Shown piece by piece: positions 27,593 to 45,374 of a stretch of 64,000 bases of DNA. Every line of letters starts with the position of its first letter. Position 1 is the first letter of the stretch. This stretch comes from an uncultured Candidatus Binatia bacterium (GTDB lineage Bacteria > Desulfobacterota > Binatia > Bin18): assembly GCA_965200965.1 (NCBI GenBank), contig OZ241744.1, positions 224,001 to 288,000 of the forward strand, in the 5' to 3' direction. The notes under the pieces are model-generated. The model saw only the letters and a program-made list of their open reading frames with translations, made no database searches and was not told where the DNA came from. The position numbers and the translations under genes were made by a program.

Positions 27593-28069
27593 CTACCCCT
27601 GCCACCGATTCCTCTTCTCCGTCATAGCAGCTTCCATATGATGGGCTTTGCGTAAGGCTGGCAGTATCGGTCCCGGGTTGGCCACGATCGCGCCACCCGG
27701 GGTTGCAGGCGACCCCGGCAGCCCGCTGCCAGCCTCCTCACGCAGGCGCTCAATCAGGCTGACCGCCTGTGCGGTGCGACCGTTGGCCAGCAGGGCCAGG
27801 GCGAGCAAACGTAAGCCGCGCGGGGTGGCCTGAAGCTGACAGGCAGCCTCGGCCCAGGCCAGGGCTTCGGCAGCCCGGTCTCCGTCACACAGGGCTTGGC
27901 GTGCCTGTTCACGGAACTGCCAGGCTCGTGCCGCCAAGCGCATGAGCGGGTCCAGATCGGTCCCACACCGGGCGCAGACAGCCGTCCCGCGCCACGCCGC
28001 CCGGCAGGTCGGGCAGTGCGCCTCTGGCAGTGATGAACGCTGAACAGGTGAGGGCGTGGGGTCTGACAT
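27593..28069 (-). CDS. Zinc-ribbon plus TPR-like small protein
   Basis: CPTC..CARCGTDL followed by Ala/Leu-rich helical repeats. Confidence 0.72.
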   Translation of the reverse strand: MSDPTPSPVQRSSLPEAHCPTCRAAWRGTAVCARCGTDLDPLMRLAARAWQFREQARQALCDGDRAAEALAWAEAACQLQATPRGLRLLALALLANGRTAQAVSLIERLREEAGSGLPGSPATPGGAIVANPGPILPALRKAHHMEAAMTEKRNRWQG

Positions 28070-28076
28070 GACGGGG

Positions 28077-29945
28077 CTAGGCTTCTTCAACATAAAACAC
28101 CAGATCGGTGAGCTGGACGGTGGCCATGTGGAGGTGATTCCAATCCTGCATCCTCAGCGCCTCCTCAATCTGTTGGTGCAGCCCGAGCGCCTCGTGTCGG
28201 TCTTCGGGCGTCATGCTGTCCAGCAGCCGACGGCTGCGCTCTAACAGGCGGCCGGCGGCAAACACCTGTTGGCGCAGCGCTTGGTTTTCGTGGTCCTGGG
28301 CGGTTTCTGGAAACGGGAACGATGGTCTTGTTTGGCCTTGGTGGTTATTATCGTTCGCCTGTGTCGCCGGCTCAGTCTGGCCGGAAGGCGTCCCCTCCTG
28401 CTCGAAGGCTTCGACCGCAGCGGCGCGGTCTTGGGCTAAGACCGCGTGCATACGCTGGCGGGCCCGGGCCAGCTCTTCGGCCGACATGGCGGTCGTCGCA
28501 CCCTCAATCGTAATGTGCCGGGCCAAGCCGGTGCGCTTCTCAATCGCGGTGACTTTCAGAATCCCGTCCAGATCAAGCTCCATACGACACAGCACCTCAT
28601 TGCCGGCCGGCACGCGGGACAGCCCTTCCATGCAGAAGCGACCGACCAAAATGTTGTTTAAGGCGTCCGGGTCGTCGCCCTGATAGACCGACACCTGCCA
28701 GTCAGTTTGCTCGTCAAGCATCGTGTGATAGGAGTCGGTGCGGCTGACCGGCAGGGGAGTGTTGCGCCGGATAATCGGGTGGTAGCAGTGTTCATACGGC
28801 CGGCCGTCAAGCACACCGAGGTGCGACGGACCAAAAGAGTAGGGCGAGATATCGACCAGAATCCGATCTATATTGTGGCCGGCGAGGCGGGCACCTAACA
28901 CACCAGCCCCAAAGGCGACACACAGCTCGGGCTGGAGGTCCTGGTGGGGGACGAGGCCGGTCTTGTCCTCGATCAGCTGGGCTGCCAGCGGCGTGCGGCT
29001 CGCGCCACCGACGAGCAGCACCTCGTCAATCTGCTCTGGCTGCTTCCCCGCGTCGCTCAGCGCCCGGTACACGCTGTCCAGGGTGGTTTCCAGCAGAGGC
29101 TGGATCAGCCCTTCGTACTCCGCCCGGGAAATTTCCACATCAAGGTGGACCGGGACGCCGTTGCGTTCGGCCAGGTGCTCTTCCCGAATGTAGGCGTAGG
29201 GCGCAAAGCTCAGGCGTTGTTTGGCCTCCTCAACCGTATACAACAGGCGGGTCATGGCGGTGGGGTCGGCTCGCAGGTCTGGGCCGCCCGACTCGACAAA
29301 CCGGTCGTGGACCCAGTCCAACAAGCGCTGGTCAAAATCATCGCCACCCAGATGGTTGTTGCCGTGGGTGGCGATGACCTCGGTGATCTCGTCCTGGACC
29401 TGAACCAGAGACACATCAAACGTCCCGCCGCCCAAGTCATAAATCAGGACCGTGCGGTCTCCCCGCCGGTCGGTGCCATAGGCCAGGGCTGCGGCGGTCG
29501 GTTCATTCAGGAGGCGGACGACATCGAGACCGGCGATGTGGCCGGCGTCGCGGGTGGCCTGGCGTTGAGCGTCGGAGAAATAGGCCGGCACGGTGATAAC
29601 CGCCCGGGAGAGTGACCGGCCCAGGACTGTCTCGGCGCGTGTTTTGAGGCCGTGCAGGATCAGGGCTGAGATTTCCGGCGGGGTATAGCTGTGCTGGCCC
29701 AGTACGAGTAGTTGGGTGGAGCCCATCAGGCGTTTGACCGATTTCACCGTCCGGTCTGGATAGAGGGGGTATTGATTCCGGGCCGGGCTGCCGACCAGGA
29801 CCCGGTTGTCTGGGGCGAGGCCGACGACTGAGGGCATGATCCGCTCGCCATTGACGGCCAACACCTGGACCTTGTCGCCGACAATGGCCGCGACCTCGGA
29901 GTTGGTCGTGCCCAGGTCAATGCCGAGGATAATGTCGTGTGTCAT
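28077..29945 (-). CDS. Specialised Hsp70-family chaperone (not housekeeping DnaK)
   Basis: GIDLGTTNS, TVPAYF, EPTAAA, YDLGGGTFD, LVGGASRTP, linker ILVDI, substrate-binding domain. Confidence 0.93.
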   Translation of the reverse strand: MTHDIILGIDLGTTNSEVAAIVGDKVQVLAVNGERIMPSVVGLAPDNRVLVGSPARNQYPLYPDRTVKSVKRLMGSTQLLVLGQHSYTPPEISALILHGLKTRAETVLGRSLSRAVITVPAYFSDAQRQATRDAGHIAGLDVVRLLNEPTAAALAYGTDRRGDRTVLIYDLGGGTFDVSLVQVQDEITEVIATHGNNHLGGDDFDQRLLDWVHDRFVESGGPDLRADPTAMTRLLYTVEEAKQRLSFAPYAYIREEHLAERNGVPVHLDVEISRAEYEGLIQPLLETTLDSVYRALSDAGKQPEQIDEVLLVGGASRTPLAAQLIEDKTGLVPHQDLQPELCVAFGAGVLGARLAGHNIDRILVDISPYSFGPSHLGVLDGRPYEHCYHPIIRRNTPLPVSRTDSYHTMLDEQTDWQVSVYQGDDPDALNNILVGRFCMEGLSRVPAGNEVLCRMELDLDGILKVTAIEKRTGLARHITIEGATTAMSAEELARARQRMHAVLAQDRAAAVEAFEQEGTPSGQTEPATQANDNNHQGQTRPSFPFPETAQDHENQALRQQVFAAGRLLERSRRLLDSMTPEDRHEALGLHQQIEEALRMQDWNHLHMATVQLTDLVFYVEEA

Positions 29946-30675
29946 AGTCCTTGTCAGCGTCTTTCTCCGCGGTTTCTCCTGTCCCACTCCTCGCGACCTG
30001 GACCTCGGCAAAACGCAGGACTTGGCCGTTACAGGTGTAGCCGGGACGGATGACTGTGAGCACCGTGCCGGAGGCTGCGGCGGTAGTGTGACTGACCGCG
30101 GCCACCCGCATCAGATTAGGATTGAACGCCGCGTTGAGACACCTGATCTCGTACACATCCAGCCGTCGCAGCAGATCGTCGAGCCGTTCCTGGGCCAGCT
30201 GTGTGCCTTTGACGAGGGCTTCAAGCACCGGACGTTGGCCGAGCCGGGCGCGCAGCCCGCGGAGGCTGGCGAGCCGCCGCTCGGCCTCGGCCAGATTGCG
30301 GCTCAGGTGGTCGCGGACCTCAAGCAATTCGGAGACGAGTTCGGTACGCGCCTCGCGCCGTGCCCGGCCCAGTTGGCGGACCAAGTCCTGGCCGGCGGCC
30401 GCCGGCTCGCCGTGGGTGGTCGGCCCGGTCAGTCTGTCCAGGGCTTGGCCGAGTTCGGCGTGTAGCCGGTTGGTAGCCCGGCCTTGCAGTTGGGTTTCGC
30501 GGGTCAGCGCGCTTAACTGTCCGAGCACGGAAAACAGGTCGGGGGCTGGATCAGGCGAGGCCATACTGTCGGGGGCCAAGCCCGGGGGGGCTGGCTCTGC
30601 CCGGTCGAGCTCGTCAAGCCAGGCGTGAACGGTTTCAATGAGGCGCTGGCGACGGTCTGGAGCGCATCCGCTCAT
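29917..30675 (-). CDS. GrpE-like nucleotide exchange factor
   Basis: Coiled coil, then FNPNLM..V...GTVLTVIRPGY..NGQVLRFAEVQV; ATGA overlap with the upstream gene. Confidence 0.82.
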   Translation of the reverse strand: MSGCAPDRRQRLIETVHAWLDELDRAEPAPPGLAPDSMASPDPAPDLFSVLGQLSALTRETQLQGRATNRLHAELGQALDRLTGPTTHGEPAAAGQDLVRQLGRARREARTELVSELLEVRDHLSRNLAEAERRLASLRGLRARLGQRPVLEALVKGTQLAQERLDDLLRRLDVYEIRCLNAAFNPNLMRVAAVSHTTAAASGTVLTVIRPGYTCNGQVLRFAEVQVARSGTGETAEKDADKDYDTRHYPRH

Positions 30676-33128
30676 CGTCCTGACTCCCGCAGGATATGCA
30701 GCCACGGCCCCGGGCCGACGTGCCGGCGTTCGTCCGGCATGAGAGCAAGCAGGTCCTCAACCCGGGCCAGTGGAGGCGGACCGAACAGGCGAGAGGCGAG
30801 CCGTTTGTCGGCATCCTGAATCGCCTCATACGCCTCCCGAATCTGGGCAAAGCCCCGCGGGTCTCGGTCCGGCGGAGAGCGTCTGAGCGCACGGAGATAG
30901 GCTGCCCGAACGGTCTCATCGTCGGCGCTGTCTTCAATATCGAGAACGGTAAAAGGGCTGAGCAGAGGCGTACTTTCCAGCGCAAGCGGGGAGAAAGCCC
31001 AAGGCAGGGCCTGGTGTGGCGCGGCCGGCTTGTGGGTGAACATCTGGCCGGGTCGGTGGGCCTGCAAGCACGGCGGCCTCGGGTGGCGGCGTTCGACCTC
31101 AAGCGTCAGGTCTATTTGCGCTTGGCTGGGCGGCCGCTTATCGTGCCGGCCGCCGGGTGCCAAGGCACCCAGGGCCAGTGCGGCCTGGCCGGCCACCTCC
31201 CCGTCCTGGGCTTGGCTGGCCAGCTCACGCGCCGCCCGCAGGCAGTTACGCGCGCGGCTTTGGTGAGGCTGGGCGAGCGAACCGCTCAGGCTTTGGCCGC
31301 GGGTCAGCAGAAAATGGCGCAGGTGAGGTTCTGGGGAGTCCAGCCCGTGACCGGCAGCGATATAGGTCAGGGCTGGCCGGCCGATGGCCAAGCCGCCGTA
31401 ACACAGGGCGTGCAGCTGAGCCACTGAGGCCCTATCCAGGTTTTTTTCAACTTGGCTGACAAAGCTGTCGGGTACGGCTAGTCGACGCTCCAACGCGCCA
31501 AACAGGGCGCAGACCCGCGCCAGCCCCTCGACCGCCTGTGGGGGCGAGACCCTGGCTGAGCACTGGGGCCGAGACACTTGGGTAATCTCACTCACCGCGG
31601 CGAGGATCAGGGCGTGCAGGGCCGGATTATTCACCGCGCCGGCTAGGGTTCGGGCCAGCGCTTGGGCGGCAGCGGTATCAGCCCTCTTGTGGGCCAGCGC
31701 CCAGTTGAGGGCCAGCAGATAGGCTCTGATATCGCCGTCGTTGGCCCGTGGCTCTTGGGCCAAGCGTTCCAGATCGGCTAGGGCCAGCCCGGATTTAGCG
31801 TCCTGAATCCGCCGCTCGGCGCTGGATAACAGGAGCCGAAACCGGCTGTGCTGCAGCTGGGGGTGGAGGCGATTGAGGGCTTCCGCTTTAGCCACAAAAC
31901 CGAGCGCTTTGCGGAGCGCGCCCCGCTTTTCCGCGGCCGCAATCAGGTAGAGCAGGGGCTCAAGGTCGTGCGGATAGGCGGCGTGCCAGACCTCGGCTTC
32001 GGCCTCGGCCCGCCTGCCGTCGCGCCGCTCGTAGTAGGCGAGCAGGGCACGAAAGACGCACGCTCCGAGTTGGGGTGAAACACCCCCGACGGCCTGACGC
32101 GCACGGTCAAGCAGGCCGGCCCGATCGAAGACGGCCGGCAGTTCGCCGGCGCGGATCACCCGCCGGAGTTGCTGTTCAGAAGCCAGACCGAGATCGTCCA
32201 GCATCTGGGGCCGATCGGACGGGAACAGCTCGCTCATACGCAGCAGAATATGAACGGTTTCTGGAGCGCTGGGCAACAGCCGACCTGCGGCGTGGGCCGC
32301 GCTGAGGTAGGTGTCCCACACCAGCAGCGCTCTGTCCCACTGGCTGTGCTCAAGGCTGAGGGCGGCAAGGCGCAGCATCTCGGGGTCAATGTTGTGGCGG
32401 CTGATGAGGTCTATGAGGCCGGCTGGCAGCCCCTCATTCCGCTGCCAGTGGTGGAACACCGTCCTGATAAATGTGTATCTGTGGTCGGTAGGAAGGGTGG
32501 CCAGCCACGGCAGGAGGTGGTGCAGGGCGCTCAAGGCTTGGTCTTCGTTGTGAGCGCTCAGCGCTTGGCCGAGCTGTCTGAGTTGACTGCGTCGGGCATG
32601 ATTGCCGGCGCTGACTCGCTCCAACAGGGCCGCTCGATGAGCACCGGGGTCGGGAACTCCTGCCTCAGCCGGGAACTCCGTTTTCCCCAGCAAGGCGCGC
32701 AGGATAGGGACCAAACGGCCCGGACCGGAATCGGCCGGTATACGCGCCAGATTGGCTTCGGCCAGCTGATCGGCGCGTCGATAGAACGCGTCAAGCGCGC
32801 GGATGAGTAACTTCCAGGGTGCCAGTGGGGATTGGCGCGGAATAGTGTCCAGGCAGGCCAGGGTGCCTGTCGGCAGCGGAGCGGTGGTGACAGCCCTGAA
32901 CATCTGCCGAACGGTCCCTGCCTGGCGTCTCAGCGGGTGCTCAGCCGGCAGGTCGGCTAACTGGCCCGGGTCGGTCAGCCGGTATTGGATACGGGCTTCC
33001 AGTTCACGGCGGCGGTCTGCCCGGGCGCTTGCCATCTGGCTGATCAGTGTGCTGAGGTCACGACTCGTGCGCCGGGCGAGCGGGGTCACAGGCTCACCAC
33101 AGCCAGTGCGTCTTTTTCGTTTGGCCAT
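30672..33128 (-). CDS. Large helical/TPR-like protein with C-terminal atypical J-domain
   Basis: Long Ala/Leu/Arg-rich helical body; C-terminal PFTVLDI...VRAAYLRALRRSPPDRDP..F..IREAYE. Confidence 0.72.
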   Translation of the reverse strand: MAKRKRRTGCGEPVTPLARRTSRDLSTLISQMASARADRRRELEARIQYRLTDPGQLADLPAEHPLRRQAGTVRQMFRAVTTAPLPTGTLACLDTIPRQSPLAPWKLLIRALDAFYRRADQLAEANLARIPADSGPGRLVPILRALLGKTEFPAEAGVPDPGAHRAALLERVSAGNHARRSQLRQLGQALSAHNEDQALSALHHLLPWLATLPTDHRYTFIRTVFHHWQRNEGLPAGLIDLISRHNIDPEMLRLAALSLEHSQWDRALLVWDTYLSAAHAAGRLLPSAPETVHILLRMSELFPSDRPQMLDDLGLASEQQLRRVIRAGELPAVFDRAGLLDRARQAVGGVSPQLGACVFRALLAYYERRDGRRAEAEAEVWHAAYPHDLEPLLYLIAAAEKRGALRKALGFVAKAEALNRLHPQLQHSRFRLLLSSAERRIQDAKSGLALADLERLAQEPRANDGDIRAYLLALNWALAHKRADTAAAQALARTLAGAVNNPALHALILAAVSEITQVSRPQCSARVSPPQAVEGLARVCALFGALERRLAVPDSFVSQVEKNLDRASVAQLHALCYGGLAIGRPALTYIAAGHGLDSPEPHLRHFLLTRGQSLSGSLAQPHQSRARNCLRAARELASQAQDGEVAGQAALALGALAPGGRHDKRPPSQAQIDLTLEVERRHPRPPCLQAHRPGQMFTHKPAAPHQALPWAFSPLALESTPLLSPFTVLDIEDSADDETVRAAYLRALRRSPPDRDPRGFAQIREAYEAIQDADKRLASRLFGPPPLARVEDLLALMPDERRHVGPGPWLHILRESGR

Positions 33129-33342
33129 GAAGCAATTCTTTAGCCGGTCCCCCGGCCTGGGTGCAAGATGAATGAGGAATATGGTGGTGGCGGTCATTGG
33201 CTTTGCCTACTGGTGGGACCGGCGGACCGTCATCTGGGAAGCGCGGCGGGAAGCGATTGAGTTTATAGAGAAAGAGGGCGTGTTGCGGCGTCTGCTTGAC
33301 GCCGGCCCAGGAAGACCCGCGGCTGGCCACTGCGCTCAAGCA

Positions 33343-34476
33343 CTATAATCTGCGCTGAGACGAAACCGCCTGGCGGGCGGCGGAGAGCGTGGCTACGACA
33401 TAGCCCTGCTGATCCTCGGTCAGTTCTGGATAGATGGGCAGGGCCAGAGATTCCCGAGCGGCCGCCTCAGCCTGTGGAAAATCACCTTCTCGATAGCCCA
33501 GCCGGGCAAAACACGCCTGGAGATGGAGCGGCCGTGGGTAATACACCGCGCTTGCTACCCCGTGGTGGTGTAAGAAGTGGCGCACCCGGTCGCGCTGCGG
33601 CAGCCGAATCGTAAATTGATGATAGGTATGACCGGGCACGTCCCGGGGCGTGGTGAGCCAGTCCAGGAGTCCCGCGGCCTCAAACAGCCGCCGATACCGG
33701 GCGGCATGGGCCCGCCGCTTGGCCGTCCAGGCCGCCACATAGGGCAGCTTCACCCGCAGGACCGCCGCCTGCAAGGCGTCCAGCCGGAAATTTCCACCAA
33801 GCACGGTGTAGTCGTCTTTCTGAGTGCTGCCGTGGACGCGCAGGCTGCGCAGGCTGTCGGCCAGCCGTCTATCATCGGTGACAACCATACCGCCGTCGCC
33901 AAAGGCACCTAGATTTTTGCTCGGAAAAAACGAAAAACAGCCCATTGCAGTATCCGTTCCAACGGGCCGGCCGTGTGGGTCGGTGGCACCGATGGCCTGA
34001 GCAGCGTCCTCGATAATTGGAATGTTGCGCGCGGCTGCCAGCCGCGCCATATCTTTTAGATCGACACACCGACCGTATAAGTGGACCGGGATGATCGCTT
34101 TTGTCCTGGCGCTGAGTGTAGCCGGGACCGCGCTGGGGTCGATATTGAAGGTCTGGGGGTCAATATCGACAAAGACCGGGCGGGCACCGAGCCGAGCGAT
34201 GACGCCGGCGGTGGCAAAAAACGAATACGGTGTTGTCACCACCTCGTCGCCCACTCTGACATCGAGCGCCATCAGGCCGGCCAGCAGGGCGTCGGTACCC
34301 GAAGACACGCCAACCCCAAAGCGGACCCCGCACAGGCCGGCTACATCCGCCTCCAGCGCCTCTACCTCTGGACCAAGGATAAAATGCTGCGCCTCACATA
34401 CCCGGTCAATCGCTGCCTGGATTTCAGACGCGATACCCGCGTACTGGGCTTTGAGGTCTACGAGTGGAATCTTCAC
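33343..34476 (-). CDS. DegT/DnrJ/EryC1/StrS-family sugar aminotransferase
   Basis: SSGTDAL, PVHLYG, EDAAQA, SFFPSKNLG (PLP lysine), GDGG, RLDALQAA, SLALP. Confidence 0.95.
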   Translation of the reverse strand: MKIPLVDLKAQYAGIASEIQAAIDRVCEAQHFILGPEVEALEADVAGLCGVRFGVGVSSGTDALLAGLMALDVRVGDEVVTTPYSFFATAGVIARLGARPVFVDIDPQTFNIDPSAVPATLSARTKAIIPVHLYGRCVDLKDMARLAAARNIPIIEDAAQAIGATDPHGRPVGTDTAMGCFSFFPSKNLGAFGDGGMVVTDDRRLADSLRSLRVHGSTQKDDYTVLGGNFRLDALQAAVLRVKLPYVAAWTAKRRAHAARYRRLFEAAGLLDWLTTPRDVPGHTYHQFTIRLPQRDRVRHFLHHHGVASAVYYPRPLHLQACFARLGYREGDFPQAEAAARESLALPIYPELTEDQQGYVVATLSAARQAVSSQRRL

Positions 34477-34509
34477 GGGGCGCTGCCGATCTTTTCTTCA
34501 GATAGGGGC

Positions 34510-35796
34510 TCAGGCTGGCGAGCTGACTGTGATCCTCTGTCGAAGCCGGCCTATCTCGCGCCAGAGCCTTTCAAAATCCCGGAGTGTGATTGGGCGGTAA
34601 TGGGCGAGTGTATTCCGAATCTCGCGTGTCAATTCCGCTGGCTGTAGTAGGGGTCGTTCCCTACGAAGAGAGCCACAGTTCCTGAAGAGGTGGACGAGAT
34701 GGCCCCATTGGCAGGCGAATGGACTGTCTCGGACTGCATCAGCTTCCTCCGCAATGTCTGGCGGACACCACCGCAACGGCCAGTCTTCCCCATACTGCTG
34801 ACTGAGATGGCGACAGATAGAAATCCTTATATCGTCAATCAAAGGAAGCGCGAGATTTGTTTGTCCACGCCACAAGCGGTGCTGCAAGTCTTCAGCGCGT
34901 CCCAACAGGGCCAGAGCGGCGGCGTGCAGCTCGGGGCCATATTCCGGCGTCCAATTGAGAACGCCGTGCGCCCACAATTGATGCCAACGGGACGGGGGGA
35001 GGTGAGGAGAATGTATGCCGGTGAGAGTGGGCAGAAAATCTTCAATGTCCCACGCTTGCAAGATGTCTGGTGTCCAGCCACGCTGTTCCCCGAATGCCTG
35101 CAAAAGAGGAAGAAGCTGCTCGCAGTCAAGGTGGAGACAGTCCCATAGATATTCAGCTAGAGCGATGTCGTTTCCCGTGATAGCCGGGACGAGATGTTCC
35201 CGCCAGCGGTGGAGAGGGGAGCATTGGCTGTCCGCGTTTTCCGAACGGCACAGTATCTGTATTTCCAAAGCTGAGGGAAGTCCCCACCAGTAATGTACCG
35301 AGAGATGGAGGTCGCTTTCAGGAACTCGGTCGGGGAGGGCAGGTCCCGGGGTGAAGATACTTAGGGCTGGAGGGTCAAAATTGCGATCAGAGAGACTTTT
35401 ACTGGTCTGTGTCCAGTCAAGGACAAACTTCACCCAAGTCTTTCGGTCAGGTTCGGGCAACTCTTCAAATCCTTTCAGATGGATTATCTGGGGCAAGTCC
35501 CCGGAAATCATCAGGTTTGCAACACTTCGGGGGCTTGAGGCTTCTGGCCATTGGACATCAAGCGCTTCGCCAAGAGCTATGACCGGACGCTCCTTGCTTG
35601 GCAGCTCCGGGAGCACAATTTCTTCAACATAGAAATCTTGCCGGAACAAGCGCCCTTCCAATGCGGGCCATAGGTCTATGGGTTCTGCCCCTGTTGGAAA
35701 GAGCACCAAGTGACTGCGCCTTGTAGAGAGGTCGTCAAACAGGGCATCCACAAACCGCTGAACGCTTGGTGCGTGCATAAGCGTATCTGTCAACAT
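34510..35796 (-). CDS. Hypothetical partner of the STAND-like ATPase, with C-terminal HEPN-like motif
   Basis: Starts 4 bp after the ATPase stop; IRNTLAH matches the R-x4-H pattern near the C-terminus. Confidence 0.65.
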   Translation of the reverse strand: MLTDTLMHAPSVQRFVDALFDDLSTRRSHLVLFPTGAEPIDLWPALEGRLFRQDFYVEEIVLPELPSKERPVIALGEALDVQWPEASSPRSVANLMISGDLPQIIHLKGFEELPEPDRKTWVKFVLDWTQTSKSLSDRNFDPPALSIFTPGPALPDRVPESDLHLSVHYWWGLPSALEIQILCRSENADSQCSPLHRWREHLVPAITGNDIALAEYLWDCLHLDCEQLLPLLQAFGEQRGWTPDILQAWDIEDFLPTLTGIHSPHLPPSRWHQLWAHGVLNWTPEYGPELHAAALALLGRAEDLQHRLWRGQTNLALPLIDDIRISICRHLSQQYGEDWPLRWCPPDIAEEADAVRDSPFACQWGHLVHLFRNCGSLRRERPLLQPAELTREIRNTLAHYRPITLRDFERLWREIGRLRQRITVSSPA

Positions 35797-35800
35797 GCGC

Positions 35801-38800
35801 TCAGAGGAAACGGAGGAGAGTTGGTTCGACAGAGAGCTGGCCGTCCTGCCGCTCAATGCAGCCGAGCCGTTGCAGGTATTCGATTGCAGTATCGCATTTG
35901 TCGGATGAGAGAACGGCAAGGCCATCGCTGTCTTGAATGTCTTGTGGATCAATCAACTCAACCGGAACTTCCGGCCCGTTTTTTTCGATGAATTTGAGAA
36001 TCCGACGCGCAGTGTCGTGAAGTCCCAAAGAGTTCCTGAATGTCCGAGAAAGTTCCGAAGACGGCTCTTCGAGCTCTTCGCTAATGGTCTCCGCAGCAGG
36101 GCGAGGATCGTCCTGGGTGCCGCAGCGCTCGAACAGAACATCTAAAAGATATGGCCAGCCGCCGGTGTTCTCCAAGACGGCGCGACACACATCGTCTGAG
36201 TCCATTTTCCTCTGTTGGTCTAAGCGTTGACGCAGGCCTGAGAGATTCCAGCGTCGGGGAAAGGTGACCACATCGACCTGATCCTCAATATCCCGGCGCT
36301 GCTGGCCTGGCAGAGAAAGCCAGTTCCAGGCCGCCCCTGGGTCAAAGATGAAGAGGAGGCGCAGCCAGCGTTTTTTGCTGCGCTGGTGAGCTTGACAGGC
36401 TTTATGAGCGGCTCTTACGCTCTCGAACAGAGCGGTGTTCGTTCCTCGAAAAGAACCGTATAAGATCAACCGCTCATGGTTTTTGTGGGAGGCTAAATAT
36501 TCCCTGATCCATTTTTCCAGCCTGGCGCTATCGAGCTCTGTTGGAGGGATTTCTTGACAGACCCCCTTAGCCTCCGGCAGCTCGGCCGGGATAAAGCTAC
36601 GGAAGGCCGCCTCGATATGAGCTAGCCCGAGAGTTTCAGAGGCAAAGACTAGACCAACACCAAAGCGAGCCGCGTTCAAACTGCGTCCCTGAGCGTAGGT
36701 TAAGGGACTATAATCTCGTCCCTGATTGTCGAGCAGGGCGTGGTGGCTATCGGCGTCAAACCGCTGCTCTGGTTCCTTCTCCGACAGGGCTAACAAGTGG
36801 TCTTCAATATCGGTTTCCGTACCAACGAGGCGCACGAGATTCGGACTGCGTAACCGATAGGAACCAGTGGCGTATCGGACCAGAACGCCTAACCCTGTCA
36901 TCTCATCCAAAAGACCTCTGAGTTGGTCGGAATCGACCTTGTTGAACCCTTTGGGCCACCAGTCCCGCACCAGTGCTGACAGGTCTGCCGGAGTGTAGGC
37001 TTGAGCATAGCCGTCCGATTGTTCAGTTTGGTCAAGAATCATAGCCCAAACTATTGCCTGATAGCGTGAATCAAGGGCCAGAGTCCATTCGAACCGTTCT
37101 CGGATTCTATCGCGCACCTGCGGTAGCAGATAGACTCGCTCCACATTGCTTTGGGCAATAGGATAGGGCGGGGACATACCCTGTTTCCGTAAGCGTTTGA
37201 GGAGTTCATCGCAGAAGAGTTGGATGAGGCCCGGATGATAGTTGGTGTAGGACAAAATCCGTAGGACCGTTCCAGGGGTGTCAAACCGATAGCCAAGAAC
37301 TTCAAGTGGCTCACGAATAAGCTGTTGAGCGACGGTCGGTTCCAAAGGGCCGACTAGCAGTGGGGTGCCGAAGTGAGCAAGGGGCTGATTGGGGATGCCT
37401 TGGAAGCGTTGGACGTTGTGCAGACCAGCAAAAACTACCTTGAAACGCCTGTCCGTGGCCTGCATAAGAGCTCGCAGACCTTCCACAACCTGGAAGCCAC
37501 CCTTGGCGTCAGCATCCAGAAAATTATCGGCTTCATCAAAGAGCATCAGGACCAGCCGTTCGGCCTTTGCTGCTATCGCCTCCCGAGCATGACGCTGCAC
37601 TTCTTCCGGTTTGTCCGTGGTAATTGCGCGTGGCAAAAGCTTGAGTTCCTTCAAGCCGTCCCGAACCTGTCCCCATAGGGTTTCTGGGGCAACTGAGTCC
37701 CCGATCAGCTTGATGTCTTCAACCCAGGCGTACCGCTGTCGTTCAGGATGGTGAAATTCACGGCGGACATGCTGCAAAAGGGCTGATTTGCCGAGTTGTC
37801 TGCCACCGTAAACAAGGCAGCTTCCAGAAGGCCGTTGCAGTTCCCGCACCATTGGACTACGGCCAAAAAACATTTCTGGTGGCACATTTCCGGCCTGGAA
37901 GGGTGTGTAGGGATTGACGGCGGAGAAGGGCAGCGTACACCGTAGAAAAACAGGCAAACGGGCATCGCGTTCTTGGGCCAGAAACACGAGCAGTATTTCG
38001 TCTAGGACAGCAACAGTGAGGTCCTCACTGCGAACTCTCCGGCTATAATCGCGTCGCTGACGCTCGGTCAAGCGACCCAGATAGAAAACAAGGACACTGT
38101 GGGTATCGAGGCGCAAGTCTCGCAACCAGGCACTTATTGTGTCAGCACCTGGCCTTTCCCATACACATACAATATCGTAGCGTCCGCTGGTTTGTGAGCC
38201 AAATTGAGGGATGGGTTTGGTCAGACCGCTGGCCGACATCCGAGCTTGAATATGCACCCATTCCGCGCCTCGTTGGATGTCGTCAAGAGATGGATCAGGT
38301 TCGAGACGAAAGCCCAGATATCGAAGCAAAACGGGAAGATTTTCCGAAATTCTTGGACCTCTGACTCTTCCTTGTTTCAAATCGGTCCAAGCTTTAATGG
38401 CTTGGATTGCCTCGTCACGGCGTCTTTCTGGCGTCTCACCAAATTTGATGCCCGCGATAGAGGAGCCACGCTTGATGTTTCTGCCAACCAGCCGCAGATT
38501 CATCCCTTGCCCTTGCAATGAGTCTACAAGCTGTGGCACAGCCTCAAGAAACTCCTGCAACGCATCACGACTCGACGGAGGAGAAAACAACTCTTCGTCA
38601 AGCTCTCCGCCCCCCTCAACAACTTCTGTGAGATGCGCCACACATTCCTCAGCAACCCTGGTCTCCCGACGGTCCAGACTGGATTGAACAAATTTCCCGA
38701 TATCTTCCAACTTGGCCGAATCAATCCGGTTGGCGAGGCGTGGCTTGAGCTCATCCCATTCTTTCTGGAATTCTTTCAGCCGCACATGACCAGCTTCTTC

Positions 38801-39061
38801 CAACTGCTTATTGATCCGTTTGAGTTGGTCGTGCTTTGGTCCGAAGTGTGGAATTGTATTGGCCTTCAGCGCTTCAATGATCCCTTCATACTCGGATCGC
38901 TCTCCCGCACTTATTCCGTCAACCTCAGCGTGTTCAATTGCGGCTCTGGTCTCTGATATAGCTGTCCGCAGCCCTTCCTGTGAGCCTTCTAATGCCTCCT
39001 GATATGCCTGACGTTTTACGGAATGATCGGGTTCATCAAAGGCGTCCAGCATTGTTTCCAC
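35801..39061 (-). CDS. STAND-like P-loop ATPase, 3' part of a large frameshifted gene
   Basis: NPY...MFFGR, GGRQLGKS Walker A, LMLFDEAD Walker B, TNYHPGLIQ; frame stays open upstream to about 39320. Confidence 0.85.
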   Translation of the reverse strand: METMLDAFDEPDHSVKRQAYQEALEGSQEGLRTAISETRAAIEHAEVDGISAGERSEYEGIIEALKANTIPHFGPKHDQLKRINKQLEEAGHVRLKEFQKEWDELKPRLANRIDSAKLEDIGKFVQSSLDRRETRVAEECVAHLTEVVEGGGELDEELFSPPSSRDALQEFLEAVPQLVDSLQGQGMNLRLVGRNIKRGSSIAGIKFGETPERRRDEAIQAIKAWTDLKQGRVRGPRISENLPVLLRYLGFRLEPDPSLDDIQRGAEWVHIQARMSASGLTKPIPQFGSQTSGRYDIVCVWERPGADTISAWLRDLRLDTHSVLVFYLGRLTERQRRDYSRRVRSEDLTVAVLDEILLVFLAQERDARLPVFLRCTLPFSAVNPYTPFQAGNVPPEMFFGRSPMVRELQRPSGSCLVYGGRQLGKSALLQHVRREFHHPERQRYAWVEDIKLIGDSVAPETLWGQVRDGLKELKLLPRAITTDKPEEVQRHAREAIAAKAERLVLMLFDEADNFLDADAKGGFQVVEGLRALMQATDRRFKVVFAGLHNVQRFQGIPNQPLAHFGTPLLVGPLEPTVAQQLIREPLEVLGYRFDTPGTVLRILSYTNYHPGLIQLFCDELLKRLRKQGMSPPYPIAQSNVERVYLLPQVRDRIRERFEWTLALDSRYQAIVWAMILDQTEQSDGYAQAYTPADLSALVRDWWPKGFNKVDSDQLRGLLDEMTGLGVLVRYATGSYRLRSPNLVRLVGTETDIEDHLLALSEKEPEQRFDADSHHALLDNQGRDYSPLTYAQGRSLNAARFGVGLVFASETLGLAHIEAAFRSFIPAELPEAKGVCQEIPPTELDSARLEKWIREYLASHKNHERLILYGSFRGTNTALFESVRAAHKACQAHQRSKKRWLRLLFIFDPGAAWNWLSLPGQQRRDIEDQVDVVTFPRRWNLSGLRQRLDQQRKMDSDDVCRAVLENTGGWPYLLDVLFERCGTQDDPRPAAETISEELEEPSSELSRTFRNSLGLHDTARRILKFIEKNGPEVPVELIDPQDIQDSDGLAVLSSDKCDTAIEYLQRLGCIERQDGQLSVEPTLLRFL

Positions 39062-39242
39062 AAAGCGATAGTCTTGTGCACCCAGCCAACTATCGAAAGC
39101 TGCCTGAAGGGAATGTTGCTCGGCGATTGCTTTGCAGAGCGTCGAAGCAACCCGGGGCAGGGCTGTGTGAGTGGGCTGTCCGCTGTCTTCCCGGGGAATT
39201 TTCGGGAGCCATAGCAGGAGCCTGCTGAGAGCGGTTGGGAGG

Positions 39243-41354
39243 CTATCGGTATTTCCATCGAACCACTCCTGCTGGCGAGTCGAAGGCTGAACAGGCTGTT
39301 CCGGTAAGCGTGTTTTGAAGTTGTTGGACCGAGCGGAGCAAACACTGGGCCGCAGCGCGAATCGGCTGAGGCTGGACTCGACTACTCAATTCTTGAAGGG
39401 CTTGGATGATTTCGGGGAGGGAACCCTGAATCTGCGAACGGACCTCGTTCGTCATCTGCGAGAAAGAGTCTTCTCCACTCTGAGGTTCCTGTTCGCGCTC
39501 AACGCATTCACACCAATGTCCGGCTAGGTCGCAGGCTTCTTGGACATTATGAACGATTTGCTTGAGCGCCGTTCCATCAATTCTTTGGGTTCCTCTAGCT
39601 ACCTTGTGGATATAGGTGGTGACATAATCATCTTTCTCCCACTGTTGCAGATTCTTGCGTACCTCATTGAGCCTCCTTTGATCGTTTTCTGTCACTGGGA
39701 AAAGAAAGGCATGCATAGCTCCGCCTGGAGCTGTCATGCGTCGCCATACATTGGAGGCTCGCTGGTATCCTGTCCGCCGCAGAGGTGCCTGTTCTAGCCA
39801 TCTTTTGGCTGCCTGCGTGGCTTCTTGGAGGGATGCTCTGTGCTGTTCTATATCGGCGACACCGAAGAGATCAGCCAGTCGTATAGACCTCCCCCAATTT
39901 GTGAACATTTTGATAGCGTCGACGACTCCGGCCAGATTCGGGCATATCTTAGGGACGCTGAGCCATGTCTGAATCCCCGTGCTCGGCGCGAGGAGACTGG
40001 CCCGCAAGGCTGCTGACAGGCCCAGAAGTTTCTGAGGCTCATCCTCAAATGGCCGGGCGTCCCTGATAATGTCTCTGAGATCATCAACAAAGGCTTGCGA
40101 ATTGGGCAAGAGTTGGCGAGCCGCCTGTACCGCGGCAATTAACTCGGGGGGGACGGGGCAGGGCTGGCCCAGCACCGGCCACGCCCGCGCCAGCCAATAG
40201 GCAGTGGGCAGTGTATCCTCGGCAATCAAGGTCCATAGGAGTTCTGTCCAATTTTTCGGGTCAGGAAAAGTCTGGAGTTGGCGGGCAATGGCTTGAATGT
40301 CGGGATTTTCGGTCCCGGGCAGGAAGATATCCGAAGGGGATATCCCTGATTTGTTGCTCTGGTCAGGATTGGGGTCGGATGGATGGAAGTTGTCAGGAGG
40401 TGATTCCTCTAGCCTGTTCTCGTCCATCTGAGACGAAGTTGCCCCGTTTTTTCCTTCTTCTTCGCGCCTCTCCTCTTGACCGGGTTCTGGCCTTTCCTCT
40501 CTCTCTGCCGGCGGCTCAGAAGAAGCGGATTCGGGAGCAAGGGAAGGCTCGAGCTTATCCGCTTGCAGAACTGTGGGGGTTCTCTCTGTTCCAGATGAAG
40601 GGGCAGCGGCTTCTTGGGGCAAAACTTGCTCAGGCTGTGGTAGCGGAACGGGCTTGTCGGACGTTTCTGAGCGAGATTTCGAGGGAGTGCCGGCGGCTCC
40701 GCCTCGGCCTGGTGTTCCTGTCCGTTGTGTGGCTGGGGAAGGCTGTTCGGAGGAGGGGATGAACAACTCGGTGAGGCGTTCATGGATTTTCGCAATCTCC
40801 TCCTCCAATTCCCCGGCCTTTTGGTCACGCAAATGCTTCTTAGCAAGCGTAGCAGGGCGAGGCTGTCGATCATACTTGTAGTACTCAAGCAGTAAGGAGC
40901 GGAACTGCTCCGTGCTTTGCATGGCGGTGGTTATGTGGGTCGTGGGACACCTCTCTGCCGCCCACTGAGAGACATCTCGCATGTCAAAAAACCCCAACAT
41001 TTCTCTTGCTTGGGGGGTGGTGAGATCGCCCAGCGCTTTTTGGAGGCGTCCCCGCTGGTCCCGACGCTCCTGTTGATTCTTCTCGTATAACTGCTGGAGT
41101 GTCTCCAGAAATTGAGGGATAGCTTCCCAGTCGGGAGCTGCCAGGGGTAATTCCTGAACCGTCTTGAGCAAGCCATTCCAGTCTATGCGCGGTTGGGGCA
41201 TCACTGTTTGTGGTTGCTCTTGAGATGCAGTTGCGGACGCCTGAGACGGGACTGAGCTTGATGGGGCTTTCATCGCCTCCCCTTTCTCTCTTCCAAGCCA
41301 AGAGAGCAGAGAGACTACACTTTTGTTCAGTGGTTCACAATACTTATGCCGCAT
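39243..41354 (-). CDS. Helical/low-complexity 5' part of the same large ATPase gene
   Basis: Coiled coils and a Pro/Ser/Glu-rich linker; overlaps the open upstream extension of the ATPase frame. Confidence 0.7.
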   Translation of the reverse strand: MRHKYCEPLNKSVVSLLSWLGREKGEAMKAPSSSVPSQASATASQEQPQTVMPQPRIDWNGLLKTVQELPLAAPDWEAIPQFLETLQQLYEKNQQERRDQRGRLQKALGDLTTPQAREMLGFFDMRDVSQWAAERCPTTHITTAMQSTEQFRSLLLEYYKYDRQPRPATLAKKHLRDQKAGELEEEIAKIHERLTELFIPSSEQPSPATQRTGTPGRGGAAGTPSKSRSETSDKPVPLPQPEQVLPQEAAAPSSGTERTPTVLQADKLEPSLAPESASSEPPAEREERPEPGQEERREEEGKNGATSSQMDENRLEESPPDNFHPSDPNPDQSNKSGISPSDIFLPGTENPDIQAIARQLQTFPDPKNWTELLWTLIAEDTLPTAYWLARAWPVLGQPCPVPPELIAAVQAARQLLPNSQAFVDDLRDIIRDARPFEDEPQKLLGLSAALRASLLAPSTGIQTWLSVPKICPNLAGVVDAIKMFTNWGRSIRLADLFGVADIEQHRASLQEATQAAKRWLEQAPLRRTGYQRASNVWRRMTAPGGAMHAFLFPVTENDQRRLNEVRKNLQQWEKDDYVTTYIHKVARGTQRIDGTALKQIVHNVQEACDLAGHWCECVEREQEPQSGEDSFSQMTNEVRSQIQGSLPEIIQALQELSSRVQPQPIRAAAQCLLRSVQQLQNTLTGTACSAFDSPAGVVRWKYR

Positions 41355-41555
41355 CGCTCATGTCAACTGCGTTCGCCGGCTGACCCAAGCGTAGCATTGA
41401 AAAGAGCGTGGGCATCTCATTGCTTTTCCAGGGTAAAATGCAAGAACGCAACACGCGTTCTCTGACGGCGTTTCTCTACAAGGGACAAGAAGGTCAGAGC
41501 CAATCCGCAAGCTCGTGTGAGCCAAAGAAAGCGTTACGGTGGCGATGTTGCGGGT

Positions 41556-44500
41556 CTAATAGCGCTTGCGCCAGATAATATCGGCGCTGCTGGAGCCTTT
41601 GGAGTTGGCGCTTGTCCGCAAATCGAGGTCAGGCGTAATCTCGTAGTCAATCGCCACTTCCTGGTCCTGTTCGCCGCCGATGCTGTGGGTGGCGGAAATG
41701 CGCGTTTTGCGGGTGAGCGCGCGCCCGAAGCCGATGTAGCCGCCGGAAAAATCCAGGCCACTCAGGTCAATGCCCAGGGCGTCCAGGCCAAGGACATCGG
41801 AAACCGATTGTCTGAGCTTTGCCGCGGCATAGCTGCTGGCCAGCGCCACGGCCTTTTGTTGCAGGTCAATCTCCTCGCCTTTATCCAGCGTGCTGGCGGG
41901 CTTGCCAAACAGCAACAGCGCCAAAATATCGGCCTGCTCCAAAGACGGCGTGCTGCGTAAATCCAGCGTCGGTGCCTCGCCCGTGCCGCCGACCACCGCG
42001 TCAACCACATAATCGTCATGGGTATATCGAGCGAGGATATCCAGCCGCGGATTCATCCGGGTCTCTTTGGCAAAGCTGATGGTTCCCCTGTTCAGGACGA
42101 ACCGACGACCCTGGAAGCCGGCCCAGCCGTCGGCCAGTTGAATAACCCCGGCGAGATACGGTGCCTCGTCCGGTTTTTTGATGACGGCGACCCCTCCGCC
42201 TACAGTGATATTGGCGCTTTGATGCTGGAGGCGGGCGGTGTGGCCTAGGTCCAGCGTCACGTCCAGGGCAAGAGTGTTCAGCCCCGCGGGGGAGCGGGCC
42301 GTCTCCGCGTCCGTCCCGCTGTGGTCGGGCTGGGGCGCGCCGGCACCCGGTTGCACGACAATAGTCTCATCGTGGTGCAAAGGCTGAGCCGAGAGAAACG
42401 ACAGTTCCGGGCGGAGCGTGGCCTGCCGTACGCTGATGTGGCCCTTGAGGTGTGGAGCGGTGAGCAGGCCGCTGGCCGTGAGTTGGCCGTCAACCTCGAC
42501 CCGGTACCGGTGGGTCCATATCGCCGGCCAGCCGTCTGCCGTAAAGCTCAAGTCCAGGGCTTGCGGCCGGTAATCCGCCAGTTCAATAAGCCCGACCCCG
42601 CTCAGGCTGCCGCCGCCGGCTGTGGCCGTTAGTTGGGTGATGTGGAGGTGCCGGGGGCTCAGGCGGCCTGTGAGGCTGATCGGACTCACGGCAAGTCCCA
42701 GCGGTTTGACTGTGGCCCGGCCATCTTTCAGGCCAAAAGTGCCGGTCAGCAGTGGTCTGTCGACCGGCCCGCTGGCGTCCAGATCGAGATGAAGCGTACC
42801 GGCGATGTCGTCCGCCACCCTGCCGCTGAACGCGTTGAGAGAGGCGAGGTTGAGGCCGTCTGAACGAATGCCCACATCCAGATCGCCGAGGACGGCGGCC
42901 CGAAGACCCCGGGCCCAGCCGAGCGACACGGGCAGGCTGCCGTCGGCGTGCAGGGCGTGGTTCTCGTCCTGATGAAAGATGAACTGAAGGCGGGCTTTTT
43001 TGTCTTGGTAGTGGATCGTGGCGCTCAAGCCTTGGTAGGTCTGACCGGCAATCTGGGCTTCGCGCACGGCTGTGCTGCCGGCGATGGACGGAGCCTCGGC
43101 AGTCCCGGCAATCTGGACATGGGCCGAGAACAGGCCGCGTATGCGCGGCTGGCGGGGCAGCAGGCCGGCGAGTTCTTTGAGCGAAACGTCTTGAATCTGG
43201 AGCTGCAAATCCTGGCGACCGGTCGTGGCCAGACTGCCCCGCAGGATGATCTGTTGATCTGGCTGGTCGTGTTTCGCCAGGGCAAAACGGTCAAGCTGGA
43301 TGCCGCCCGCCTGATAGTGAACCCTGGCCGCTTGGGTCAGCCGCCAGGTGCCGAGCGGCAGAGCCACAGACAACTCCTGGAGTTGGGCCACAATCCGCTC
43401 CGGCTCGGCTACAATGTGCGCCCGGAGACGGTGCTGACGCTCAGGGGTCTGCGTAGCGGTGAGGCGGAGATGCAGCCGGTGGTCCTGGCCGGCCTTGGAT
43501 TGGCCAGGAGCAAGTTGCACATCGCCGCGGAGCGTTTGCAGGGCAAGCCCGGCTTGGAGATCGCTCAGCCCGATAGTGAGGCTGGCCTGGGGCTGGGGCT
43601 GGCCAAGCCGCGTGGCGGTAAAGTCGATCGCGGCCGCGGCCAGCGACAACTCGGCCAGCCGTACAGCCTCGGCCCTGAGCTTGCCCTGGGTCCGAATGTT
43701 GCCCGGACGGCCCTCGGCCATTCCCTCCAGCGTGAGTCGCCCCGAGCCTTCCCGACCAGCTAGGCCCAACCAGGGGGAGAGCCGATCAATCTGGAGCGAG
43801 TAGGACAAACGGCTGCTGTGGTCAAGGGCCGTGTCCAACTCCCCGGCGATAGTCAGCCGGGCGTCCGGGGTGAGCAGCGTCGCCTCTGAGATGTGGACTT
43901 GTCCACCGACTATGCGGGCGACGAGCCGGCCGTGGGTGAGGTCCAGCCGGCCGAGCCGGGACGGCTGAAGCGTCATCTCTACTCGGGTGTTCAGGCTTGG
44001 CAGCGCGAGGCCGGTCCCCTGGAGTCTCCCGCGCAGTTTGAGTGCGCCGCTGATCACATCGTGTCCGGCCGCGGCCAGCCGGTCGGCGGCAAAGTTGAGG
44101 CTGTACTCGGGGGTTTCAGCCAAGGCCAGCCGGCCCTGCCAGGTGGCGTGGCCAAGGCCGCCGGTCAGCTCTCCGCTAAGCGTGGCCGTCCCGTTGGCCA
44201 GCCGAGCCTGAACCGAGACGGTTCCCAACTCGACCCCGGCTAACTGTAGCCTCTCGCCCCGAAGGTTTGTCTCGGCCTCAAGCGCAGACACGGCCGTGCC
44301 GACCCCACGGCCACGCAGGCTGCCGTGTATCAGCCCGCGGACACCGCCGAGCGTCTCGTCTGCCGTGTCCAGCAGCCGGGTCAGATCGACATGGGCCAGC
44401 CTCAGCGTTCCCTGATAGCGCGGGGGTTGCTGGCTGAGGTCAGCCTCGGCCTGGGCATCAAGCGTCGCCCCGGCCGTCTTGAGGTGCAGAGTCGCCTGCA

Positions 44501-45374
44501 AATCGCCCGGGCGGCCTGTGAGCTGCACCCGTCCTGCTATATCGTGCTTGAGTGGCAGCCCGGGCGCGAACTGGAGCACATCGGCCAGCCCGATTTTTTC
44601 CAGGCTGAGTTCAAGAGCAAGGCCGAGTTCGGCTGTGCCCACATTGCTGAGCTGGCCGGTCAGCCGAAGCCGGGAATGGTCTGTTGTGAGGCTGAGTTGG
44701 TGCAGCCGGACTGCGGGCGGGGCGGTGCCGTGGTGGTAGTGAGCAGTGGCTTCGACGCCCAGGGGCGGAATACCTTCGGCCAAGGCGTGCAGGCTCAGCT
44801 GACGGATGTCGACGTCAAGGCCGCTTGGAGTGATATCGAGCCGAGCGTCGAGACGCAGAGCGTTCAACTGACAGCTTTGGTCCCCGCGGCTCAGAGCGAT
44901 CCGCCCATTCTCTATGGTCAGGTTTTCCAGGCTGATGATGAGGCTCGGCGGGTTCCGCGGCCCCTCCTGGGTAGCTGACGAGACGGCTTCGAGCAGCTTG
45001 ACCCCGCCCCCGTCACTCTGGGCTATGCGCATAAACGGTCCGACGAGCGAGATGTCCGAGACCTCCAGCCGCTCCTTGAACAGGGACAGGAGCCGATACC
45101 GGGCGGTCAGCCGGGGAATGTGGATCAAGGTCTCGCCCCGGTGCTCAAGACGGAACTGATGCACAATCAGGGAACCCCACAGCGTGCCTTCAAGTCGCTC
45201 AAAGCTGAACTGTCCGACGAGGCTGGTGTTGAGGATGTCAAGAAGGTGCTGGCGGGCCAGGGTGCGAAACTGCTCAGTGCGCACAAACACCAAGCCGCTT
45301 ACCATGACCAGCCCGAGCAGCAGCCCGAGCAGCAACAGGCTCCGACGCAGGATTGTCCACACGGTCGCCATCAC
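41556..45374 (-). CDS. tamB: Translocation and assembly module TamB (AsmA/DUF490)
   Basis: N-terminal TM anchor, long beta-rich body, C-terminal GTGEAPTLDLRSTPSL...DILALLLFG. Confidence 0.85.
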   Translation of the reverse strand: MMATVWTILRRSLLLLGLLLGLVMVSGLVFVRTEQFRTLARQHLLDILNTSLVGQFSFERLEGTLWGSLIVHQFRLEHRGETLIHIPRLTARYRLLSLFKERLEVSDISLVGPFMRIAQSDGGGVKLLEAVSSATQEGPRNPPSLIISLENLTIENGRIALSRGDQSCQLNALRLDARLDITPSGLDVDIRQLSLHALAEGIPPLGVEATAHYHHGTAPPAVRLHQLSLTTDHSRLRLTGQLSNVGTAELGLALELSLEKIGLADVLQFAPGLPLKHDIAGRVQLTGRPGDLQATLHLKTAGATLDAQAEADLSQQPPRYQGTLRLAHVDLTRLLDTADETLGGVRGLIHGSLRGRGVGTAVSALEAETNLRGERLQLAGVELGTVSVQARLANGTATLSGELTGGLGHATWQGRLALAETPEYSLNFAADRLAAAGHDVISGALKLRGRLQGTGLALPSLNTRVEMTLQPSRLGRLDLTHGRLVARIVGGQVHISEATLLTPDARLTIAGELDTALDHSSRLSYSLQIDRLSPWLGLAGREGSGRLTLEGMAEGRPGNIRTQGKLRAEAVRLAELSLAAAAIDFTATRLGQPQPQASLTIGLSDLQAGLALQTLRGDVQLAPGQSKAGQDHRLHLRLTATQTPERQHRLRAHIVAEPERIVAQLQELSVALPLGTWRLTQAARVHYQAGGIQLDRFALAKHDQPDQQIILRGSLATTGRQDLQLQIQDVSLKELAGLLPRQPRIRGLFSAHVQIAGTAEAPSIAGSTAVREAQIAGQTYQGLSATIHYQDKKARLQFIFHQDENHALHADGSLPVSLGWARGLRAAVLGDLDVGIRSDGLNLASLNAFSGRVADDIAGTLHLDLDASGPVDRPLLTGTFGLKDGRATVKPLGLAVSPISLTGRLSPRHLHITQLTATAGGGSLSGVGLIELADYRPQALDLSFTADGWPAIWTHRYRVEVDGQLTASGLLTAPHLKGHISVRQATLRPELSFLSAQPLHHDETIVVQPGAGAPQPDHSGTDAETARSPAGLNTLALDVTLDLGHTARLQHQSANITVGGGVAVIKKPDEAPYLAGVIQLADGWAGFQGRRFVLNRGTISFAKETRMNPRLDILARYTHDDYVVDAVVGGTGEAPTLDLRSTPSLEQADILALLLFGKPASTLDKGEEIDLQQKAVALASSYAAAKLRQSVSDVLGLDALGIDLSGLDFSGGYIGFGRALTRKTRISATHSIGGEQDQEVAIDYEITPDLDLRTSANSKGSSSADIIWRKRY

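Follow-up and report, generated by a model that had tools for sequence, protein, structure and literature searches.

Do a giant ATPase gene and the small gene behind it, in the genome of an uncultured Candidatus Binatia bacterium, form a defence system that current catalogues lack? The window analysed here is a stretch of 64,000 nucleotides (contig OZ241744.1, positions 224,001 to 288,000; assembly GCA_965200965.1). For two genes in it, an original prediction made from the letters alone had proposed a giant STAND-like ATPase with a HEPN-motif partner, as a sensor and RNase effector in a defence island. It turned out that the two genes belong to a conserved and likely mobile pair, made up of a giant STAND ATPase and a partner in which a predicted inactive STAND module leads into a likely HEPN domain. 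We put the probability that this pair is an abortive anti-phage system at about 60%. The family is real, widespread and unnamed, its role is likely anti-phage, and the copy in the window strain is probably inactive.

A conserved two-gene unit

To describe the linkage, 85 loci were collected (five genomes plus the best 80 of 545 metagenome hits), which fall into 68 groups at 90% identity. The partner lies directly downstream of the giant gene in 79 of the 85 loci, and in 79 of the 80 loci with room for it, which bears out the expected co-occurrence; the six loci without it are five contig ends and one chimeric gene (L068). It is also present in all five loci on viral contigs and in five of the eight distant plasmid loci that were opened, out of 25 records. 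A single-sequence tblastn search with the partner returned no plasmid record, and profiles did find plasmid loci. No third gene is conserved beside the pair (the largest neighbour cluster covers 5 of the 68 locus groups), and no paralogue of the pair was found in its own genome. With its profile, the partner has 1,521 matches among proteins clustered at 50%, of which 969 reach E ≤1e-10; for the giant, 7,996 scored candidates included 1,063 homologues.

The distribution of the pair is patchy. In a 350-genome sample of another phylum (centre excluded), one genome has both genes, adjacent to each other, and none other has either. Among 40 relatives, the full-length pair occurs in two of seven congeners, with a distant match in one further member of the family. 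In all four testable congeners without the pair (G001 excluded), the site between tamB and degT is free of it: tamB lies 0.1-0.2 kb from degT in G002 and G004, and only a Uma2-type gene separates them in G003 and G006. As had been noticed, the unit is less GC-rich than its flanks (54.8% vs 64.6% and 64.8%). The low GC, the patchy presence in congeners and the pair-free tamB-degT sites point to mobility, so that the two-gene unit is conserved and likely mobile. Two loci titled Candidatus Binatia (L001 and L004) share the gene order of the window.

Domains of the two proteins

The giant is encoded on the minus strand by overlapping open reading frames (ORFs) in different frames (39243-41354 and 35801-39061, the second frame being open from 39385), in which the peptides originally quoted, LQNTL / LPEQPVQPSTRQQEWFDG...YRFVETML, are found. 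The proposed length of about 1,850 amino acids (aa) is right if counted from ATG 41354, but residue 1 of three homologues aligns at ATG 41273 and not at ATG 41354, which makes 41273 the likely start and gives 1,823 aa for the intact protein. The partner (428 aa) starts at ATG 35796, the predicted 4 nucleotides beyond the giant's stop codon. A sigma-70-like promoter site overlaps the first ATG (41354) and is the sole one in 33000-42000; since 2.7 such sites are expected there by chance, it is suggestive by position alone. The features are collected in Table 1.

Table 1. Window positions of the two-gene unit, its predicted domains and its flanking genes
Feature	Position	Strand	Basis or remark
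Sigma-70-like promoter consensus TTGACA-18-TATTGT	41337..41366	-	~64 nucleotides upstream of likely start codon
Giant ATPase gene, 5' part, ~658 codons	39300..41273	-	homologue alignment
One extra base, breaks reading frame	39299..39300	.	present in X1, X2; absent from X3, X4, X7, X8, X9, X12
Long helical region of giant, residues 1-315 of the 1,168-aa 3' frame	38363..39298	-	AlphaFold2 model
Conserved alpha/beta domain, residues 316-461 of the 3' frame	37925..38362	-	AlphaFold2 model
Intact STAND/ORC-Cdc6-type AAA+ module of giant	36773..37924	-	
Second, degenerate STAND module of giant and stop codon	35801..36772	-	model, hhalign, Walker A scan
Partner residues 1-300, predicted inactive STAND/ORC-Cdc6-type module without Walker A	34897..35796	-	
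Partner residues 301-428, all-helical, likely HEPN domain	34510..34896	-	R-x4-H conservation; HEPN_Swt1 below cut-off
Downstream flank, DegT/DnrJ aminotransferase, outside the unit	33343..34476	-	
Upstream flank, tamB, outside the unit	41556..45374	-	

The 5' part of the giant holds two conserved blocks (residues 31-180 and 325-659) with a variable linker of low complexity (181-324) between them. Its ratio of nonsynonymous to synonymous substitution rates (dN/dS) is 0.34-0.48, within the 0.22-0.48 found across all parts of the unit, and in comparison with L001 the giant has a dS of 0.29-0.41, much higher than the 0.19 of its flanks. The long helical region has a mean pLDDT (predicted local distance difference test) of 86.3. 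Downstream, the intact module carries Walker A GGRQLGKS (37807-37784), Walker B D591/E592 (DE at 37537-37532) and TNYHP (37246-37232); as had been read from the window alone, this module is complete, with Walker A, D591/E592 and most TNYHP positions unchanged in all 88 sequences compared. Stand-alone archaeal ATPases take the first two places among the structural matches and plant NLRs come next, and ORC/Cdc6, MuB, TnsC and BrxC are also among the best; these model-based matches support a STAND-clade ATPase, as proposed. The C-terminal 323 aa form a degenerate STAND, with ASETLGL at the Walker A position and TGGWP at the TNYHP position. This second module is in register with the first (hhalign E 0.024, a weak match) and is without Walker A in 88 of 88, in agreement with its description as degenerate. 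In both proteins of the pair, catalytic-type residues are the most conserved positions.

The strand-helix order of residues 316-461 of the giant's 3' frame may recall a dead restriction-nuclease fold; neither Pfam (62 members) nor an Atlas search supported this resemblance, and the region has no Pfam or PDB profile match. No useful hit came from sequence searches of solved structures, whether with P0001, the partner or its profile, the 316-461 domain or the last domain.

For the partner, residues 1-300 are predicted to form an inactive STAND/ORC-Cdc6-type module; a Walker A pattern occurs in just 1 of 188 partners. In the model this part leads straight into the last helical domain, without TPRs. 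Compared profile against profile, its N-terminal part has no significant similarity to either STAND module of the giant (E 0.18 and 0.19), which gives no support to an origin by duplication. A complex prediction of giant 462-1168 with partner 1-292 scored 0.01. The motif RNTLAH, said to end the partner, lies at 34617-34600, 29 residues before the C-terminal end. Its R394 and H399 are invariant in 52 of 52 members, and R-x4-H, near the C-terminus of the helical domain, is found in 188 of 188 partners and, in another count, in 57 of 57, so the conservation expected of a HEPN-type motif is there. HEPN_Swt1 is the best and recurring Pfam match, over residues ~320-420 (window partner E 0.007, below the cut-off; best hit E 2e-5, 25.3 of 27.5 bits), and an Atlas cluster labelled "putative Swt1-like HEPN" was matched at 0.96. 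Residues 301-428 are likely a HEPN RNase domain. The picture of a sensor and RNase pair holds as a conserved two-gene unit, but not for the partner as a stand-alone RNase, most of which is predicted to be an inactive STAND.

The frame break and a proposed mechanism

The frameshift placed near 39310 by the original prediction is one extra base (Table 1), as seen in the contigs of eight runs. The two runs whose contigs carry it come from one sample: the X1 contig (depth 42) is identical to the window, and this run may be its source, and the X2 contig (depth 5.7) shows no difference from it. Six runs of four other studies are without the base. Five close full-length homologues align to both frames, switching at about 39285-39340. 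The comparison rests on contigs, in which rare alleles would be hidden. Because the base was seen in two runs of one sample and is absent from the others, an assembly error is unlikely, and an assembly artefact was rejected. The frameshift is a real strain mutation, so the giant copy in the window is probably non-functional.

There is only a very slight chance that the break is functional, whether by programmed frameshifting or as a split gene that still works, or else a sequencing artefact. All ATPase modules lie in the 3' frame, which is open for 86 codons on the upstream side of the break, and the extra base lengthens a one-base run to two; however, the distribution of the base among the runs speaks against this explanation, and the five homologues read through the break point as one protein. 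Other copies are damaged too. The X4 contig has lost one base at 37279, inside the ATPase module, with no listed indel in the partner (one contig, depth 12), and L001 has a broken giant and an intact partner. In the X7 and X8 contig, 48 bases of the variable linker (40788-40835) are skipped in frame. The natural frameshifts present a two-gene unit undergoing loss in close relatives from sponge-associated samples.

In the mechanism that we propose, the long N-terminal region of the giant would sense a molecule of the invader, or else that a host protein has been damaged, and ATP binding at its one intact module would drive assembly, which the dead modules of giant and partner would join, like the active and inactive subunits in ORC/Cdc6. 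HEPN RNases cut as paired HEPN domains, and assembly would bring two of these together; the activated HEPN would then cut tRNA, rRNA or mRNA and lead to cell arrest. The partner alone would likely be off, so the broken allele of the window is likely silent and its loss tolerated. Clean controls exist in Walker A, R394/H399, the partner alone and the natural broken alleles.

The same breaks bear on a toxin-antitoxin or guard arrangement, in which the HEPN partner would be constitutively toxic and held inactive by the giant until infection releases it. This we regard as unlikely. The gene order is antitoxin-first, the linkage is near-obligate, HEPN toxins of toxin-antitoxin systems are common according to the available part of PMC3710099, and the window strain could still make a 1086-aa 3' ORF product, keeping the partner inhibited. 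However, split hits indicate a broken giant at 7 of 85 loci, against 1 broken partner of 79, and X4 has lost its ATPase base with no partner indel listed. Assembly errors may account for some of the giant breaks, and a 7:1 excess is not far from what the lengths of the two genes would give. With these caveats, an activator agrees better than an antitoxin with the independent breaks of the giant beside an intact partner (window, X4, L001).

Genomic context, known systems and variant relatives

For the expected defence-gene enrichment, 189 of 201 neighbour ORFs were scanned (12 were left out as flank genes or duplicates), and the six of L068 were then dropped. Defence or conflict Pfam domains (E ≤1e-12) were scored by hand, not blind, and the control was 120 genes at 20 hand-spaced sites in one genome, that of the window. 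Such domains were found in 30 of 183 neighbour genes vs 6 of 120 control genes (Fisher p 0.003), but the per-locus comparison was not significant (20 of 55 vs 4 of 20, p 0.26), so defence enrichment around relatives of the pair is suggestive, not settled. Among selected neighbours, co-directional genes match DndH/Mad7, DruF/DruL, PglZ with DrmD, HmaB with PLD helicase, and E1-E2/JAB, and in L020, L021, L028, L057, L058, L065 and L072 the pair is embedded in or adjoins type I restriction-modification, BREX-related, Dnd and Druantia loci, with the same direction of transcription. In L115:4518-17658, a WYL gene stands directly upstream of the pair, with E1-E2/JAB-like and patatin genes downstream.

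These loci could also indicate a backup role on DNA, with the ATPase assembling on DNA that is invading or damaged, or on a restriction or BREX-related machine that has stalled, and firing the RNase when first-line restriction fails. The structural matches to ORC/Cdc6, MuB, TnsC and BrxC agree with this idea, as do the restriction-type surroundings, a pPIWI-RE fusion in L111 and L116, and the proposal of inactive STANDs as nucleic-acid receptors in the available part of PMC8195603. Nevertheless, it seems rather improbable: no third gene is conserved, most loci, the window included, have no such system adjoining, and the two best structural matches are the stand-alone archaeal ATPases, then plant NLRs.

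Several points weigh against an abortive anti-phage system. The anti-phage function is deduced from sequence, and the defence enrichment is weakened by the non-blind scoring and the single-genome control; per locus it is not significant in the strict set either (11 of 55 vs 2 of 20, p 0.49). The flanking genes in the window are housekeeping genes (tamB and a DegT aminotransferase), so the window itself is not a defence island, contrary to the original prediction. Three of the eight distant plasmid loci (L112, L113, L118) are without the partner, which means that the giant can exist without it. HEPN profile hits occur in 8 of 52 and 13 of 114 members, all of them below the Pfam cut-off, and among solved structures the fold searches, dominated by the AAA+ part, gave no HEPN match. 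A Pfam scan of the giant found no repeat or effector domain, hence no repeat-type sensor, and its structure predictions cover the 1168-aa 3' frame only, not the N-terminal 658 residues. Finally, a start at 39061/39052 could still give all ATPase modules in the window strain.

The housekeeping neighbours would also suit a non-defence module for RNA processing or stress. In three alphaproteobacterial loci the partner has an extra C-terminal P-loop kinase (AAA_33), a combination that recalls RNase-kinase RNA-processing pairs. On the other side, the pair is very patchy (1 of 350 in the phylum sample, 2 of 7 congeners), low in GC, repeatedly broken, and found on plasmids and viral contigs, and we hold such a module to be highly improbable.

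The abortive anti-phage reading has its nearest published parallel in the nSTAND2 two-gene counter-invader operon, a computational prediction by Kaur, Iyer, Burroughs and Aravind in 2021 (PMC8195603, available part). There, an active STAND stands upstream, and the downstream STAND, its NTP-binding motifs eroded, is fused to HEPN or GT4; an arginine finger in both proteins and a toroidal hetero-multimer are part of the prediction. Our pair is likewise a likely mobile unit, with two adjacent genes that each have a STAND module, one of them with eroded NTP-binding motifs and fused to a likely HEPN. However, none of the partners (0 of 52 and 0 of 114) matches PF20702 in Pfam, and the nSTAND2 consensus words occur in 1, 2 and 0 of 188. 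The HEPN members among the rows listed there are nSTAND2+wHTH+TPRs+HEPN proteins of 532-636 aa, unlike the partner of 428 aa without TPRs, and here the upstream giant bears a second, dead STAND. The pair shares the operon design but, by sequence, is a different family without the TPR architecture; in the sources available, the "active STAND plus inactive STAND-HEPN" design was found only as this prediction.

Like Avs1-21 and NLR-like proteins, the giant is a large STAND-clade ATPase with intact Walker motifs and a defence-associated context. The suggested Avs/NLR likeness fails in the layout: in Avs a single chain joins an effector at the N-terminus to a C-terminal repeat sensor (available part of 10.64898/2026.01.04.697583), while here the C-terminus is a dead STAND, with no C-terminal repeat sensor, and the likely effector is a separate STAND-HEPN protein. 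No Avs profile matches either protein, and the 589 clades of that bioRxiv report may include this family. Unlike BREX BrxC/BrxB and BR systems (PMC12839542), the unit has no PglZ, methyltransferase or helicase, and none is near it in the window; BrxB, as described in the available part of that paper, is without the C-terminal helical bundle and HEPN of the partner, no Brx profile matches either protein, and the available account of BREX-related systems there does not describe the pair. HINPO, which combines HEPN, a ParA-inactive nucleotidyltransferase and ORC-CDC6/STAND (bioRxiv 10.64898/2026.10.19.760177, available part), likewise links a HEPN gene to an ORC-CDC6/STAND ATPase, but our pair has no intervening gene, no ParA Pfam hit and no nucleotidyltransferase, and its HEPN is downstream and fused to an inactive STAND. 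Bacterial Swt1-like HEPN members fused to STAND or DUF499 ATPases are known from PMC3710099; the partner scores below their cut-off, and its fusion and operon are absent from the available part of that paper, as is any STAND fusion from that of PMC3702460.

With PADLOC 2.0 (2023 library), the best E for the window proteins was 0.009, none of 14 partners matched, and 12 giants gave only three hits near E 1e-3 and, in P0410, one to MzaA in its sigma-70 part. Neither the giant nor the partner is covered by a PADLOC or NCBIfam model, in keeping with the proposed undescribed system, and a literature search that covered few subscription papers found no description of the family or of its sigma-70 or pPIWI-RE fusions. 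If the pair is a defence system, current catalogues have a widespread gap, and the "active STAND plus inactive STAND-HEPN" class gains an example that can be tested.

The N-terminus of the giant varies among relatives. Among homologues longer than 2,044 aa, 44 of the best 120 have sigma-70 domains listed (hand count, confirmed on 4), and P0366, P0391, P0410 and L113:4645-11514 have full sigma-70 with regions 1.2, 2, 3 and 4; this clade is cyanobacterial wherever species are named. On alphaproteobacterial plasmids, giants of 3,100-3,256 aa (L111:2296-13251 and L116:1702-13142) have all three pPIWI-RE Pfam domains (X, MID, RNaseH) at the N-terminus; a gene of ~1,130 aa lies before the giant, and the partner after it has the added kinase. 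Of the plasmid records, 7 of the 25 are annotated "RNaseH domain-containing". In P0322, an IF2_N domain (residues 528-577, E 3.4e-9) lies within the variable linker. An N-terminal block of ~170 aa, found in 110 of 240 homologues, is absent from the window's giant. A quick tree of 46 hand-picked rows with midpoint root, from which no order of events is claimed, places the sigma-70 fusions on one side of a starred branch and groups the two pPIWI-RE fusions with the unfused L115.

A tentative and less likely extension is that of an undescribed pair acting as a bacterial immune receptor: one STAND module competent for ATP would assemble with two dead ones to switch on the HEPN RNase, and the giant's N-terminal input slot would be exchangeable, hypothetically filled in relatives by a sigma-70 factor, a pPIWI-RE Argonaute-like module or an IF2 N-terminal domain. 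If true, bacteria would have their own equivalent of plant NLRs with integrated decoys, and guide-based nucleic-acid sensing would have a path to STAND-triggered cell arrest; comparison of the natural sigma-70 and pPIWI-RE variants makes the input of the ATPase testable. The sole sigma-70 locus examined, L113, has a PLD-SNF2 helicase after the giant in place of the partner, which limits the idea of an integrated decoy. A close homologue, P0325 (3,003 aa), has ~970 extra N-terminal residues (1-975) with no Pfam match.

Around the pair, the tamB-degT interval (window 34477-34509 and 41274-41555) is a small variable slot across the window, L004, L126 and L127, which is empty or holds a Uma2-type gene alone, the pair alone, or both. 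Downstream of degT, window 27593-33197 encodes a TPR/DnaJ-domain protein (841 aa), GrpE, Hsp70 and a zinc-ribbon/TPR protein, a second-type chaperone locus largely shared with L001. At 47736-64000, a PMT_2 glycosyltransferase-like gene is followed by a stretch with AT skew up to +0.41 and 65-71% GC.

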